The notes under the pieces were generated by a model. It had not been told where the DNA came from, ran no database searches, and worked only from the letters and a program-made list of their open reading frames with translations. A program made the translations under genes and the position numbers. From assembly GCF_054482595.1 (NCBI RefSeq), contig NZ_CM137008.1: a DNA stretch of 64,000 nucleotides. One strand, written 5' to 3'. The stretch's first letter is position 1. Every line of letters starts with the position of its first letter. Positions 4,943 to 12,224 of the stretch are shown here, one piece after another.

Positions 4943-5200
4943 TCAATTATATTTTATAATTTGTTGTATTGCTGACTTTATATTGCCAATGACATCCTCA
5001 TCATTAAATTCATTTAATATATTTTTTAGAATAGGATGTAGTTTAATATCACCTAAAATACCTGCCAAAATAATAACTTCATCAAAAATTATGTTTTTTT
5101 GCAGTTCATAAATTATAGCAGTTATAACACGATTATCTTTTCTTTCTGCCAGTCCGCTTATAGCTTCAATTCTGGCACAATCATTCTTATCTGTCAGCAT
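4943..5200 (-). pseudogene. HEAT/ARM-like repeat ORF fragment abutting the ISAs1 element, possible remnant of an Rhs immunity gene
   Basis: 85-aa AT-rich ORF with HEAT-like periodicity (ARIEAISGLAERKDNRVITAIIYELQ...); starts 12 nt below the transposase stop in the same frame; too short to be a complete HEAT-repeat protein. Confidence 0.3.
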
Positions 5201-6490
5201 TCCAGGGCAAGATTACGAAAGCCCGCTCCCCGCAAGGACTGACGCCAGATAGTTTCTGTCCATGGCTGCTTTTCGCATCTTACGTCTTAACCCTGCCTTG
5301 AATACCTTATCATTCGTCAAAATATTAATAGCAATGTGCCGTATCCCTGAAAATAATTCTGCTGCATTTCCTCTTCTTATTTTGCAGTCGTCTTCATTCA
5401 TTACCACGTCCAGACGCCAGTGCAGCTTATTCTCCACGTGCCAGTGGTTTCGGATTGCTGTGGCGAACTTCTCTGCGGTTAAATCAGCAGAACTGATATA
5501 ATATCTGACCGTCATTTCTGGCTCTTTCTTTTGTTCTGCTATTATGGACCGAAAGGAGACTGCCACGCATAATTTCTTCAGCCCTTTCCATTCAAACGTG
5601 AAATCAATAAGTTCATCAGGGACATCGCAAACATTATGAAGACGGATCTCTTCTCTGCCGTGACTCTTTTCACTCATTGCGTAACTGTCATGCTCTGGAT
5701 TATTTAATTCTTTCAGTGGAAATTTTTCCTCAAAGGCTTTATTAAGCCGCCCCTGATTTCCTTTTACAGCGAATAAATAATCACCGCCCTGTTTTTGTAT
5801 CTTCTCTGCGATATCTTTCTGGCAACCCATCGCATCAGTTGTGATAATTTTTCCTTTAATATCCAGCATGTTAAGAAGTTCAGGGATAGCTGTAATCTCA
5901 TTAGATTTCTCATCCGTCTTGATCTGTCCGATGACCAGACTGTGCATTGTTGAGAACGCACTAATGACATGAATCGCTCCCCTGCGGCGACTCTTGTCAT
6001 AAGAGTGCCGGAGCGTTTTTCCATCAATTGCAATGACGTCTTTATCATCTGAAGAATGGCAGTCACGCATCCAGTTAATAAAGCACTCGTGAAATTTTGC
6101 AGGACTGATACAGGATACAACTCTGGCAATGGTATCGTGAACAGGAATACCATTTTCAAAATCACCATATTGCTTCAAAAAATCGAGATGTGTTTCCCCA
6201 AAATCCTCTATATCTTCCCAGCCTTCTGCACCAGAAATAACGGCACAAATAGTCAACAGTAGAATATCCGATAATTTATGCTCCACTTTCCAGGCTTGTC
6301 TGTAATCAGGGATAATAGAAATATGTTCCATCAATTTTTTAAGTTCCATTTTGTTCTCCTTAATTATGTAAGGAGTATTTGATCATGTATAAGCAATAAA
6401 AAACAGCTTCAGGTAATGAGGAATATCTCAATTTTTAAACATAAAATGCGAATTATTTAGTACAAAAAGTGAACTTCTGATGATCTTTCC
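5201..6490 (-). mobile_element. ISAs1-family insertion sequence (E. coli H-repeat/ISEc1-like); boundaries approximate
   Basis: Contains an intact 378-aa ISAs1 transposase ORF; the size expected for an H-repeat is about 1.3 kb. Terminal inverted repeats could not be fixed by eye; only a short shared gcggggag core was seen near both ends. Confidence 0.5.
5213..6349 (-). CDS. ISAs1-family transposase (H repeat-associated protein), full length
   Basis: 378-aa ORF recognised as the H-repeat-associated (YhhI/YdcC-type) transposase family; no frameshift or internal stop. Confidence 0.9.
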
Positions 6491-6987: not shown

Positions 6988-7290
6988 TTATTTTGTGTGT
7001 ATTACATTCAACACTTGCCCATCTTTTTTCGCTATTAGTATTGTAAAATTTCCTCCTAAAGTCTTCGGTTGTTTTCCCTCGATTTTCCAACAATTATTGT
7101 CATCTGTAATACTATATGGTTTCTGAAATTCTGCTTTTTCTTTCCCGTATACATATTTAATGTAAACATATGATAATTCCAAAGCCATTTCACGACTATT
7201 TACTAAAATTTCCACTGGATTTTCTTTTCCAAATACTTGTTATGATATTGTAAACAATATCATAATAAGTAATATTAGTGAGTTTCTCAT
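6988..7290 (-). pseudogene. Small secreted-protein gene interrupted by an in-frame TAA at codon 17 (orphan immunity-like remnant?)
   Basis: ATG at 7290-7288 opens MRNSLILLIMILFTIS, then TAA at 7242-7240, then the same frame continues QVFGKENPVEILVNSREMALEL... to the stop at 6988. The ORF-track 75-aa ORF (6988..7215) is the in-frame downstream part, starting at a GTG. Confidence 0.4.
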
Positions 7291-7458: not shown

Positions 7459-8028
7459 TTATTTTTCTTCACTACGAAGCAGTTCATGCTGTATTTTTGT
7501 TAAACATTCGTAAGACTCATCTTTGTTCGGGAGATGTGCTGTCATTCGAGCATAAGTTGGCTTCTCATCTTTAAAATATTTAACCATGATTGAATTATCA
7601 AGGACTGCCAACAACTGAGCTGGATCACTGCTCTTTTTTTGATAGATACCCGCTCTTATATAACTTCTAAACCGATCGCCGAGAAACGCCGTTTTTTCTG
7701 CTGTATTTATCAACTCCTGCAACGTTCCTTTGATGGCATGATTTTCATTAAGGCGTAGTGACCCGACACGAATTAAGAGTCTCGCCCCGCTTGATGTGAA
7801 TTTATTATTTTTACATGTACCCAGTTCTGTTTGCCAATAATACTCACCGATGTCCTCATTCTGATACCATCTCCACATGGCTTTATTATTTAAGACAGGA
7901 AACGCGGAAAAAATAGTACCCTTAGCGAAAATAGTAAAACAATCATGATCTTTAGCTTGTATTTCGCAATCAGCTATAACACCAAAATTAACAAATATCA
8001 TCAGCAAAAAGAACAAAACTCTTTTCAT
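7459..8028 (-). CDS. Putative Rhs immunity protein with N-terminal signal peptide (YbfC-like by length and position)
   Basis: 189-aa ORF whose start overlaps the rhs stop by 4 nt; N-terminus [19 protein letters not shown] resembles a Sec signal peptide; low GC like the rhs 3' end. Confidence 0.6.
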
Positions 8029-8549
8029 TTTCTTATTCCTCTCGATGTTCTCTGTTTCATTTTAGCTAAAATTTCACCCAAATCATCTATCCCTGCTGTT
8101 GCTGGCCCATCGGGTTTATTAATGTCTGGGAATAAATAGGGTTCTGCACAAGTATATCCTGGTGGTAATTGAGTTGTTGGCCAATTTGTCTGTGGCAGGT
8201 AATCACTTGCTGTCTTTGTATCCATCCCTGGATACTGGGGATCATCCTGTGGCGTACAAGTCAGATTTGGTTTTACCCACTTCCTGCAATACAGTGTGTA
8301 GTCGTAAGGGCTTAATGCTCTGAAGAATGTTTTGAAAACATTAGGCGCACTACTGGCCTGGTCAATAGGATATGGCAGTCTTAATTGTTTCGCTATGTCT
8401 GGCAATTTACTTGGATCGGGCGTAGGCGGTTTGTTGGGTCTCGCTCCATATCCGCCATTATTTAAGTGTCCATATTTTGATGCCAGTCCCATTGAATCTA
8501 TATACTGAACCGGATTCAACGGATACTGATAAAAATTCCATCCCCCCTT
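8025..8549 (-). other. Rhs C-terminal toxin domain (174 aa after DPIGL), family not recognised
   Basis: Sharp drop in GC below 8550; residues [43 protein letters not shown]...[17 protein letters not shown]...[11 protein letters not shown]...; three Cys and Pro-rich stretches. Confidence 0.6.
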
Positions 8550-11500
8550 CAGTCCAATCGGATCCTGAGTGATATACCTCCCCTGCAGCGGGTCATAATA
8601 GCGGTGGCGGTTGTAATACAGGCCGGACTCCTCATCATACTGCTGACCCGGCAGGCGGATGAGCTGCTGCAGCTGGTGCGGGTTCTCTTCATTCAGCTGG
8701 TTACCCCATTCATCGTATTCTGCGTACCACGCTGTTGTCCCTTCCGTGCTGATAAGCGCCAGCGGCAGGCCGCGATGGTCGCAGTGGTACAGGTGGATTT
8801 TTCGCGCCGGCGTGTACACCGGGTCCATCTGGTTTTGCATCTGCTTCACCGTCAGGCCGCACGATGCCAGCCAGCGGCGGCTTTCCTCACTCACCCGGTC
8901 AGCCAGGATTTCACTTTCCAGCCGGTCGAGCATCTGCACCAGCACCGGCGGGAACACCACACTGCCACCGTCTTCACCGCCGGACTGCTGAAGGGCATCC
9001 GCCAGGCTGCGGCGCTGCGTTCTGGCCAGTTCACCGGTGGCAGTTTCAACTCTGATGAGTGGTGTGAAGCTCCCCGGCTGATAAATCGTCTGGATGCGGG
9101 TTCTGTCGTTCTGTATCGTGGTCAGGCGGTCGCCATCCCAGCCGTACCAGGTCACTTGCGGTTTCCGTGACAGCGACATCCAGCCCGTCAGGTCCCGTTC
9201 ACGTCGCCATACCCGTTTTGCCACCCTGCGGCCCAGCGGGTCGTAAAGATAGCGGCTTTCGACCAGCGGCTCTGCATATTGTGTCCGCGTGTAGTGCACC
9301 AGCCGGTGCTGACTGTCGTAATGGTACCGGTGGGTGCGCTCATCATCCGTGCGGATAACCCCTTCCGGGATGAGGTCGGTTTTCTCTGTCAGTCTGCCGT
9401 GACGGTCATACCGGTAAAGATAGTGCGCGTCACGGGCGATACGGTTATCCGGCCACATGCTGAGGGTGCTGTCCGGGTGCAGCTCCGGGTCGGGCAGGCG
9501 GTTACCTGCCGGGTCCGTGGCATACGGGATGCGGATATCAAGGTTCGCTGCCGTGGTGTGAACGCCGGTCAGCCTGCCGGAGTCGCTGTAGCTGTAACTC
9601 CGGGTATGGCGCGGGCTGCTGATGCGGATGAGTTCGCCGTTGTCGTTCCAGGTGTAATCGCGGTCAGACTGCAGGCTGTTCAGGTGCTGGCTCTGTAACT
9701 GCCCGGCAGGGGTATAAGCGGTGGTGAGTTCATAATGGCCGAAGCTGCGCAGCGTTTCCCGGTGCAGGCGGTCGCGGGTGAAATCCACCAGCGGTGTGTC
9801 GCCGAGCTTCATGCCTGACAGCCAGCCGCTGCCGTAGGTCAGCCATTCCACGGCGGGCAGGCTGTCCGGTATACAGCGGTTCGCCAGCCCCTGCGCGTTG
9901 TAAGCGTGTCTGGTCTCATGCTGCCAGAGCAGTGCTTCCGTCTGCGGGTGATGCACCGTCTGACGCTCACCGGTCAGGCGGCCTTTCTCATCATACCTGT
10001 AATGCACCGCTACCCGGTGCCCTTCGCTGATATGGCTGATGTCTGTCAGCCAGCCACGTTCGTCATACCGCCACCGCTCTGCGGTTTCACCCTTCACGGT
10101 GCGGTGCGTGAGGCGGTCTGCTTCGTCATAGTGCCAGTGGGTGACCAGACCCTCATCCTCGCTGCGGATAAGTTTGCCGGTCAGGTCGTGGTGATAATGC
10201 TGTGTGCGGCCGTCAAAGCCGGTTTCCTGTATCAGCCGGTCGAGTACATCGTAACGGAAGGTGGTGTGGCTGCCGTTTTCACTGGTCAGGCGGATGACCC
10301 GTCCGGCAGCATCGTATTCCATACTGCGCGTCAGACCGCCCTGCGTGGTACGGATGGCCTTTCCCCACGCATCGTACTGTGTCCCGTTTCTGCTGCCGTC
10401 CGGAGCAATGACGGCGGTCAGGTCACCGGCGGCGTTGTATTCATACCGCATTTCATGGCCCTGCATGTCTTTCACGGCAATTAACCGTCCACGGCTGTCG
10501 TATGCGCGGTACTGACTCAGCCCTTCCTCGCGGTGCACCGCCGTCATCTGCCCGAAACGGTCATGGTCATAACGGGTTACATAACCGGAACAGTCGGTGA
10601 AGCTCAGCAACTGGCCGTAACGGCTCCACGTCATGGTTTTCCGGCTGCCGGTGGCATCGTCCGTTGCGCAGGGTAAGTCACTGTGTGGATTATCATAACG
10701 GTAGCGGGTGATATCGCCGTCAGGGGCGGTTTCCTGAATCAGACGGCCGGATTCATCATATTCCCGGCGCATTTCCAGCCCGTCAGGCCCGGTGGCTGAC
10801 GTTAACTGGCTGTGGTGGTTATAGTAAAATGCCGATGCCCTGCCATCCGGTGTGGTGATGCGCGTGATGAGTCCCGTCACCACATCCGGGCTGTATTCTG
10901 TTGTCCGGCCTGCGGCATCCGTCTGTGCCTTAAGCCTGCCCACCGCATCAAACTGACTCTGCGTGACGCTGCCGTCCGCGTGTTCCTTTTTCACCACCCG
11001 CTTCAGCCCGCCTTCGCCCTGCGTGTGCAGCACTTCACGGCGGTCCAGGCTGTCGGTGATGGTGATGCGGTTTTGCTCATAACAGTAGGTGTAGCTTAAG
11101 CCCGCCGGGTTAAGCTGCTCTGTCACCCGCCCGTCGCTGTCGTAACGGTAACGGATTTCCGGTCGGCCCGTGTGACGGTGCGCCACCATCCGGCCCCGGT
11201 ATTTATCATCGTAAGTAAAGCTGCGCACCTGTGTATTGCTGCGGTCATACACCGCCGCCAGTTCGCCGCGTGGCGTCCAGCCATAGCGCACCAGCGGCGC
11301 GGCTGGCAGGTTGTCCGGGTATTCCGGGTCGTGCGTCAGCCACACGGCAGACAGACGGATGCCGTTGTCCCGGCCATATTCGGTGTAACCCGGCAGGGTA
11401 TCAGGAAAAGCGGACGGTTCCGTCCCGCCGGAAGAGGCCTGCTGCCGGGCTTCTTCTGCCCGCTGCGCCTGCGTGGTCAGTACCAGCCGGAAGTGACGCC

Positions 11501-12224
11501 CGGCACCATCCGTCACGCCGGTGATTTCGCCGCTGAATTCACCGGCGGCTTCGCGGTGGAACGTCTGTGTGCGCCCGAAGCGGTCCACCAGCCCGGTCAG
11601 TACCCGGTACGGCGGCAGCGGCGCAGGCAGCACCTCATCCGCTTCCGGCACCCGCTCACACCAGCCGAGCAGCCACCACGGCCCCTGCGGACTGTTTGTC
11701 GCCAGATAACGATGCGGACTTAAGCGGAGTTCTTCCGGCAGCGCCTGCCAGAGTGCGGCCAGCCGGTGACCTTCATCCAGTTTCGCCACGCCGCCGCGCA
11801 CCAGCCACAGTGACTCGCTGCGGCTGTAACCGTCCTCACCGGGAAACAGGTGCTCAAAATACAGGCTTCTGCCGCCGTTATCACTGAGTATCAGTGTGTT
11901 ATCGCGCAGCTGTAAGCGGATATCCGCAGGCATTTTCCAGCCGGGGCCGAGGCTCCCCACCGGCGCGGGCGTTTTTGTCCGGTAACTGCTGTAGGTGCGG
12001 GAGAGAATGAACGGCAGCGGGGCGGGCAGGGCGATGTCGGTTTCACCGGGAAGGACCTTTGCACCGAGCAGCGGATTGACCGGATGGCCGGACGTCACCC
12101 CGCCGGGGCACACCGAACAGGCCACGCCGGTGGGGGCACCAATACGTACCCCGGCTGAACCCTGGACAATGCTACCGCCATACTGCGTCATGTCGCCCTG
12201 ACGCGCCGCCGGTTTTCCGCTCAT
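8025..12224 (-). CDS. rhsC: Rhs family protein (RhsC by position next to ybfA-kdp) with variable C-terminal toxin domain
   Basis: 1399-aa ORF; N-terminal region with CSVCPGG motif, long YD-repeat core, and DPIGL core-end motif encoded at 8550-8564, followed by a 174-aa C-terminal domain. Confidence 0.9.

Follow-up and report, generated by a model that had tools for sequence, protein, structure and literature searches.

Full-length Rhs proteins consist of a large, well-recognizable core and a short, exchangeable C-terminal tip, and the Rhs protein encoded in the 64,000 nucleotides (nt) of Escherichia coli chromosome analyzed here (contig NZ_CM137008.1 of assembly GCF_054482595.1; referred to below as the window) raises the question of what its tip is and in which compartment of a target cell it would act. 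The answer preferred here, to which a probability of about 0.7 is assigned, is that this RhsC protein carries in its last 152 residues the toxin half of a YbfO/YbfC toxin-immunity pair, which would act in the periplasm and which in this strain sits on a full-length Rhs protein and not on an orphan fragment.

The limits of the toxin follow from the layout of the Rhs protein, of which the relevant parts are:

8025-12224, minus strand: rhs open reading frame (ORF) encoding RhsC, 1399 amino acids (aa)
8484-12224, minus strand: RhsC-type core, aa 1-1247, delimited with NCBIfam, Pfam and by comparison with K-12 RhsC
8550-8564, minus strand: DPIGL, aa 1221-1225, the first of two motifs with 17 residues between them
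8484-8498, minus strand: DSMGL, aa 1243-1247, the second motif, at which both NCBIfam core models stop

The core comprises an N-terminal PAAR remnant (aa 2-20, a weak and partial Pfam match with E=0.2) with DUF6531 (aa 46-123, Pfam), a YD-repeat shell in which NCBIfam recognizes nine YD-repeat stretches, and the Rhs-associated core with its aspartyl-protease plug, which ends in DPIGL-(17 aa)-DSMGL. The NCBIfam model RHS_core NF041261 covers aa 1-1247 with 2637 bits against a cut-off of 2000, and Rhs_assc_core TIGR03696 covers aa 1170-1247 with 80 bits. In Photorhabdus Rhs1, C-terminal autocleavage follows the second of two motifs spaced by 17 residues, and it is this second motif that holds the catalytic Asp (PMC8636562). 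As the core models end at aa 1247 and Rhs1 is cleaved after its second motif, the toxin is placed from aa 1248 onwards. Asp1243 is thus the predicted catalytic Asp with autocleavage predicted after Leu1247, and the released toxin would comprise aa 1248-1399, i.e., 152 aa encoded at nt 8028-8483. A first-pass annotation of the window had correctly given the ORF 1399 aa, but had let the YD-repeat core end at DPIGL and had assigned the 174 residues behind it to the tip. DPIGL does lie at 8550-8564 and is followed by 174 residues; the core, however, extends 22 residues further to DSMGL, and the toxin is shortened to 152 aa accordingly.

The tip is also set apart by its composition. Its G+C content is 0.430 (0.33 at third codon positions) compared to 0.616 (0.72) for the core, and that of the following gene, ybfC, is 0.368. 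In windows of 90 nt, the G+C content drops from 0.58-0.61 at 8570-8600 to 0.44-0.49 at 8480-8510. Blocks of 50 aa match K-12 RhsC with an identity of at least 88% up to about aa 1236 and of 14-28% thereafter, which places the exchange point between the two motifs; with aa 1250 as the dividing line, the drop is from over 84% to 14-28%. The 152 residues contain three Cys, a single His (residue 6) in a variable linker, and 22 Pro, corresponding to 14.5% compared to 5.5% in the core. These counts agree with the earlier description of an AT-rich, Cys- and Pro-containing domain behind an abrupt drop in G+C content, and the fall between about 8600 and 8480 marks the tip as compositionally foreign, as expected for a horizontally exchanged Rhs tip.

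The compartment in which the toxin would act is indicated by the gene that follows it:

7459-8028, minus strand: ybfC, the putative immunity gene, 189 aa, named 'protein YbfC' by the annotation pipeline PGAP

The start of ybfC overlaps the stop of rhs by 4 nt (ATGA), so that the two genes are arranged for translational coupling. Eight other loci with tip homologs were compared (L002, L004, L007, L008, L009, L011, L013, and L014), in which the toxin core is about 33% to 75% identical to that of the window. In all eight, a gene for a YbfC homolog of 188-207 aa comes immediately after the toxin gene, and stop and start codons overlap in seven of the nine loci, including the window. In all ten YbfC-family sequences encoded in these nine loci, a basic n-region precedes a hydrophobic region and an AXA-like site, which together read as a Sec-type signal peptide; examples of the cleavage site, marked by a slash, are VIA/DC in the window copy as well as ALA/CE, SIA/CE, ASA/MT, AFA/ER, and LYA/EV. 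The h-region of the window copy reaches a Kyte-Doolittle value of 2.8 over 15 residues, and its mature form would have about 170 aa and four Cys; the mature proteins of the family keep one Cys close to each terminus. That the window copy is a lipoprotein was considered and rejected because the residue at position -1 is Asp.

The conserved gene order supports a role of YbfC as the cognate immunity protein of the tip. Since the export signal is kept across a divergent family, the toxin is most likely neutralized in the periplasm and would therefore act there. A target in the cell envelope had already been suggested from the Cys and Pro content of the tip. This argument is weak when taken alone, but the idea itself now gains support from the independent evidence of signal peptides on YbfC and on all homologs that adjoin the toxins.

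In Enterobacteriaceae, most characterized Rhs tips act in the cytoplasm, as nucleases or as other toxins, and one database record names a homolog of the tip 'putative deoxyribonuclease RhsC', although this name is inherited from the core. It could thus be argued that the tip is a toxin of the cytoplasm as well, such as an unrecognized nuclease, and that the signal peptide of YbfC is incidental or YbfC is not the immunity protein. This is most improbable, as the signal peptide has persisted in all ten YbfC-family sequences across toxin identities of about 35-100%, the conserved cysteines of toxin and mature YbfC suit an oxidizing compartment, and neither a nuclease motif nor a match to a nuclease family was detected in the tip.

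Homologs of the tip were searched for with a word-indexed search of 5.8 billion proteins and a full HMMER scan of 1.84 billion representatives. About 30 relatives were found, all of them Rhs tips; profile iteration added no further members, and a plasmid collection returned only mis-binned chromosomal pieces of E. coli. A further candidate, P0101, was rejected as a repeat-protein false positive. As every relative with an N-terminal extension shows the end of an Rhs core, the domain is confined to Rhs tips. Close relatives (66-99% identity) belong to Escherichia, Salmonella, and Phytobacter, whereas relatives with 25-46% identity come from metagenomes and other genomes, and Foldseek adds an Rhs fragment from Paracidovorax with 40% identity. 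Frameshifted homologs exist as well (the immunity gene of L015, P0016, and P0020). The alignment of the family divides the tip into three parts:

8376-8483, minus strand: Pro-rich linker, tip aa 1-36 (ASKYGH...QLRL), variable with a gap-rich alignment, predicted to be disordered
8118-8375, minus strand: conserved toxin core, tip aa ~37-122, with one helix and three strands predicted
8028-8117, minus strand: C-terminal tail, tip aa ~123-152, in which an amphipathic helix lies between an acidic cap and a polybasic end (...R-G-I-R-K)

No known toxin family or fold could be assigned to this domain. The tip has no match in Pfam even at E<=10, and 20 members of the tip family gave no Pfam match at this threshold except for one chance hit (0.056). 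NCBIfam models matched only the leftover residues of the Rhs core, and PHROGs and PADLOC returned no match for the tip. Sequence and profile searches against the PDB gave nothing below E=1 for either the tip or YbfC, and YbfC belongs to no family in NCBIfam or Pfam. The tip motif is not present in the supplements of a catalogue of Salmonella type VI secretion system (T6SS) effectors, and no match to the tip was established for a discovery paper on polymorphic toxins. For the RhsC tip of enterohemorrhagic E. coli, which may be a different one, an in silico study offers a low-confidence threading match (VipE, TM 0.57), which was not accepted.

Structure models were calculated with AF2. For the tip alone, the predicted local distance difference test score (pLDDT) was below 50 over most of residues 1-36 and about 75 in the toxin core. 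For a co-model, tip residues 36-152 were joined to mature YbfC through a Gly/Ser linker of 30 residues, and a multiple sequence alignment (MSA) of 9 paired and 24 unpaired rows was used. In this co-model, the pLDDT of the toxin core rose to 80-89, which is a weak hint of a real complex of the toxin with YbfC, and YbfC reached 85-93. The tail helix is a low-confidence prediction. For YbfC, an all-beta sandwich with two short helices was predicted. Foldseek comparison with AFDB50 returned YbfC relatives and otherwise only uncharacterized proteins, with 'Periplasmic protein [Salmonella enterica]' as top match and others from Paracidovorax, Delftia, planctomycetes, and Lentisphaera. The fold search with the modeled tip matched no structure of known function. 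Of the checks that the first-pass annotation had proposed, fold prediction with structure search thus matched no fold of known function, and sequence search with the tip alone returned Rhs tips only and no characterized toxin. The statement that the tip cannot be assigned to any nuclease or deaminase family therefore holds at the level of sequence, profile, and fold.

The most strongly conserved part of the domain is the core with its cysteines. Its conserved motifs are SPYDY, Cys66, W69, Cys76, D94-Y-x-P97, L-P107-x-G109-Y-x-C112, and F118-P-(D/E)-L. All three cysteines (66, 76, and 112) are conserved across the family and Cys112 is invariant, whereas the alignment contains no conserved His. 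This pattern bears on the main rival explanation, according to which the tip is a thiol enzyme with a new minimal fold that attacks the cell wall or lipoproteins, e.g., as an amidase, peptidase, or acyl-transferase with a Cys as nucleophile. Most known T6SS effectors of the periplasm are enzymes, and the periplasmic immunity resembles that of Tae- and Tlde-type effectors. The odd number of conserved cysteines, the invariance of Cys112, and the conserved acidic residues D94 and D134 would also fit an enzyme. However, neither a conserved His nor another evident general base is present, the sole His lying in the variable linker, and the conserved core has only about 85 residues. Moreover, NlpC/P60, CHAP, and YkuD are absent from the Pfam searches with the 20 family members, which gave no other family either, and no fold was matched. 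Lacking a conserved His and any match to these three families, the tip is unlikely to be a Cys-His wall hydrolase of the usual kind, and a thiol enzyme of another kind is possible but rather unlikely.

The tail behind the core shows a different kind of conservation. An acidic cap, A130-G-I-D-D134, is followed by the predicted helix and then by the basic end. The last ten residues (8028-8057, minus strand) have a net charge of +3 to +6, which is at least +4 in 19 of 20 homologs. Eighteen of these 20 have Arg in the penultimate position, and 17 end in Lys and three in Arg. Among Rhs tips, conservation of a polybasic decapeptide with Arg-Lys at its end is unusual. The best hydrophobic moment over 18 residues is 0.55-0.79 and lies in this tail in most members, with a mean hydrophobicity of about 0.

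On the basis of this amphipathic helix and the conserved +4 to +6 end, the tip could be suspected of damaging membranes: from within the periplasm, the helix would insert into or disrupt the inner or the outer membrane, with the core serving as a scaffold only. There is a precedent for an Rhs tip that acts on membranes in Tse5 (PMC10684867). Nevertheless, this explanation is weaker than that of a thiol enzyme and must be regarded as unlikely. The tip has only one amphipathic basic helix and neither a hydrophobic nor a glycine-zipper segment, its highest Kyte-Doolittle mean over 19 residues being 0.14, and the tail is not hydrophobic on average. The lack of hydrophobic helices argues against pore formation, the Cys-containing core and not the helix is the most conserved part, and YbfC is a predicted soluble beta-sandwich and not a membrane protein.

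A more speculative reading of the tail is that the terminal Arg-Lys copies the ...Tyr-Arg-Lys end of Braun's lipoprotein (Lpp), so that L,D-transpeptidases of the victim would tether the toxin to peptidoglycan or would be titrated by it. If true, this mimicry would weaken the link between outer membrane and cell wall and would represent a new class of non-enzymatic, disulfide-locked periplasmic effectors. It draws only on the conserved basic C-terminus and the periplasmic location, and the three homologs ending in Arg speak against a universal mechanism that depends on Lys; it is accordingly a long shot.

As there is neither a Cys-His pair nor a hydrophobic helix, the reading favored for the tip is that of a compact, disulfide-stabilized domain. 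Our best guess from the sequence features is that this domain would bind and block, or modify in a new manner, a component of the envelope, with its basic tail resting on an anionic surface.

Comparison with E. coli K-12 clarifies where the tip comes from. In K-12, ybfO (the rhsO orphan, b0703) and ybfC (b0704) encode the same pair; the tip is identical to that of the window except for one aa, the two ybfC genes differ in 12 nt, and ybfO differs from the last 1434 nt of the window rhs at 28 positions. The pair occupies one and the same locus in both strains, with kdpFABC/ybfA on one side and H-repeat/IS (insertion sequence) elements on the other. The gene order is kdpFABC-ybfA-rhs-ybfC in the window and rhsC-ybfB-ybfO(pseudogene)-ybfC in K-12 MG1655. 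In K-12, the tip is thus carried by a 5'-truncated orphan fragment downstream of rhsC-ybfB, whereas in the window it is carried by a full-length, translatable RhsC. Compared to the K-12 locus (L012, 2584-8654), the Rhs protein of the window consists of the K-12 RhsC core and the K-12 ybfO tip, while the window lacks the K-12 rhsC tip, ybfB, and the 5' end of ybfO. This fused state is consistent with the product that recombination between the core repeats of rhsC and ybfO would yield. Koskiniemi et al. reportedly described such switching of Rhs tips from orphan to main gene for Salmonella in 2014, with orphan tips being reservoirs that recombine onto the main gene.

The pair is widespread in the species. 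Of 5426 complete E. coli genomes, 3570 carry the tip DNA at an identity of at least 95%, and in 3244 genomes the tip is at least 99% identical. The state of the carrier gene was read in an evenly spread sample that gave 59 full-length matches. In 19 of these, including O157:H7, the tip belongs to a full-length 'RHS element core protein', whereas it belongs to an orphan fragment in the other 40, including K-12, BL21, W, and J53. Going by its sequence, the tip itself is not new but is the long-catalogued ybfO/ybfC pair of K-12, for which no functional study was found in the literature. The label 'unrecognized' given to the domain by the first-pass annotation is hence justified for its function but not for its sequence, which has been catalogued as K-12 ybfO/ybfC and is found in two thirds of the complete E. 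coli genomes.

This distribution could also be read as that of a decaying relic without function, surviving mostly as an orphan pseudogene in the rhsC locus. In K-12, ybfO is indeed annotated as a pseudogene, about two thirds of the sampled genomes contain the orphan fragment only, and some homologs are frameshifted. A relic is very unlikely nonetheless. The near-identity of the tip in those 3244 genomes and its intact state on a full-length Rhs protein in about one third of the sampled carriers do not suggest decay, toxin and immunity protein are paired and intact in distant lineages, and the window itself shows a fused tip, as expected if orphan tips are recombining reservoirs.

For the preferred reading, an envelope-acting YbfO/YbfC pair on a full-length RhsC, the following course of events is proposed. 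The Rhs shell would enclose the tip, and a T6SS spike would carry the whole protein into the periplasm of a neighboring cell, as suggested by what is known of the family and by VgrG and PAAR genes beside homologs. Judging from the motif, the aspartyl-protease plug would then cut after DSMGL (1247), setting free a 152-aa fragment in which a Pro-rich and disordered linker precedes a small alpha/beta core with three conserved Cys and an amphipathic polybasic tail. The cysteines would probably become oxidized in the periplasm. The fragment would act in this compartment or on the periplasmic face of membrane or wall, as the predicted family-wide export of the immunity protein by Sec implies. YbfC, as a disulfide-bonded beta-sandwich in the periplasm, would bind the toxin and protect sibling cells, presumably neutralizing it 1:1; the co-model gives a weak hint of such binding.

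VgrG, DUF2169, and PAAR-like genes flank the tip homologs in L004, L005, and L015. For the strain studied here, we only infer delivery by a T6SS, because its own Rhs protein has just DUF6531 and the weak PAAR remnant and has no T6SS neighbors. Several points weigh against the preferred reading as a whole. The window contains no T6SS genes, and neither vgrG nor eagR adjoins rhs; to our knowledge, vgrG does not accompany the rhsA-D loci of the K-12 type, and the delivery route is an assumption here. The AF2 models have only moderate confidence, and the gain in pLDDT in the co-model could result from the trimming of the tip or from changes in the MSA rather than from the partner. The odd number of cysteines leaves room for a catalytic thiol. 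Finally, about two thirds of the sampled genomes have the tip as part of an orphan fragment, where it may go unexpressed.

Some further observations concern the surroundings of the pair in the window and in related loci. A 75-aa ORF (6988-7215, minus strand) is named 'NTF2 fold immunity protein' in the annotation of an identical locus; it has no NCBIfam match and no adjoining toxin gene and was presumably left behind in the rhsC island as an orphan immunity gene. At its distal end, the rhs island carries a 378-aa transposase of the ISAs1 family (ISEc1, 'H-repeat'; 5213-6349, minus strand), whereas in K-12 other H-repeat remnants, ybfQ, ybfL, and ybfD, lie at this end. Next to this IS element, an 85-aa ORF (4943-5200, minus strand) matches only positions 202-283 of the 285 positions of NCBIfam PRK09687 ('putative lyase') and is apparently the remnant of a truncated gene. 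The own tip of K-12 RhsC, i.e., its last ~150 aa, has more than 10 Cys and is followed by the partner YbfB with 108 aa; this uncharacterized tip may also work outside the cytoplasm. In L008 (1-5976), a YbfO-like orphan tip is followed by two tandem YbfC-like immunity genes, and the main Rhs protein upstream has a tip that is rich in Gly and Ala and resembles a glycine zipper, behind which a protein of 188 aa with hydrophobic stretches is encoded. In L013 (1294-2489) from Salmonella enterica subsp. salamae, a second orphan Rhs tip directly follows the YbfO/YbfC-like pair; it has many Cys and a faint phospholipase-A2 match, and an ankyrin-repeat protein is encoded behind it.

Rhs tips without an assigned function are common. 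The ybfO/ybfC pair is nevertheless of wider interest, as about two out of three complete E. coli genomes, including K-12, B, W, and O157:H7, contain it without an activity, family, or fold having been assigned. Both states of the tip, silent downstream of rhsC or fused onto rhsC, occur within one species and provide a convenient natural system for studying toxin switching. The laboratory hosts K-12, BL21, W, and J53 carry ybfC, so that chromosomal immunity could mask the toxicity of the tip in standard assays. Periplasm-acting Rhs tips have been studied far less than nuclease tips, and action in the periplasm is unusual among the Rhs tips studied. As a small Cys-containing domain with neither a conserved His nor a hydrophobic helix, the tip falls outside the usual classes of amidases, lipases, and pore-formers, and solving its mechanism could therefore reveal a new envelope target or a new chemistry.

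Among known systems, Photorhabdus Rhs1/Tre23 and Aeromonas TseI (PMC8636562, PMC7170923) share with the Rhs protein of the window the YD-repeat shell, the two DPxGL-type motifs 17 residues apart, the variable C-terminal toxin, and the downstream immunity gene. Their tips are an ADP-ribosyltransferase and a nuclease that act in the cytoplasm and are countered by cytoplasmic immunity proteins, whereas the tip described here has no assignable fold and an immunity protein with a Sec signal. Effectors that act in the periplasm and require DsbA of the target cell are known from Serratia with Ssp2 and Ssp4 (PMC5792426). These resemble the proposed pair in their periplasmic action and periplasmic immunity, and the conserved cysteines of the tip could likewise be oxidized after delivery. 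However, Ssp2 belongs to the Tae4 family of amidases and Ssp4 forms pores, both being cargo effectors, while the tip is part of an Rhs protein and is related to neither of them in sequence or fold. Tse5 of Pseudomonas aeruginosa (PMC10684867) is an Rhs-encapsulated tip with an envelope target, as proposed for the tip of the window; Tse5-CT is reported to be delivered to the membrane and to form pores, in contrast to a tip that has no hydrophobic segment and an immunity protein predicted to be soluble. Effectors of the Tae and Tlde types (NlpC/P60-like and YkuD-like) are small and Cys-containing, act in the periplasm, and are matched by immunity proteins with signal peptides, as is the tip; they have a Cys-His catalytic pair and defining folds, whereas the tip has no conserved His and matches none of these in Pfam or by fold. 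The comparison does not indicate a categorically new type of system; most likely, RhsC and YbfC of the window are an uncharacterized Rhs toxin/immunity pair that acts in the periplasm.

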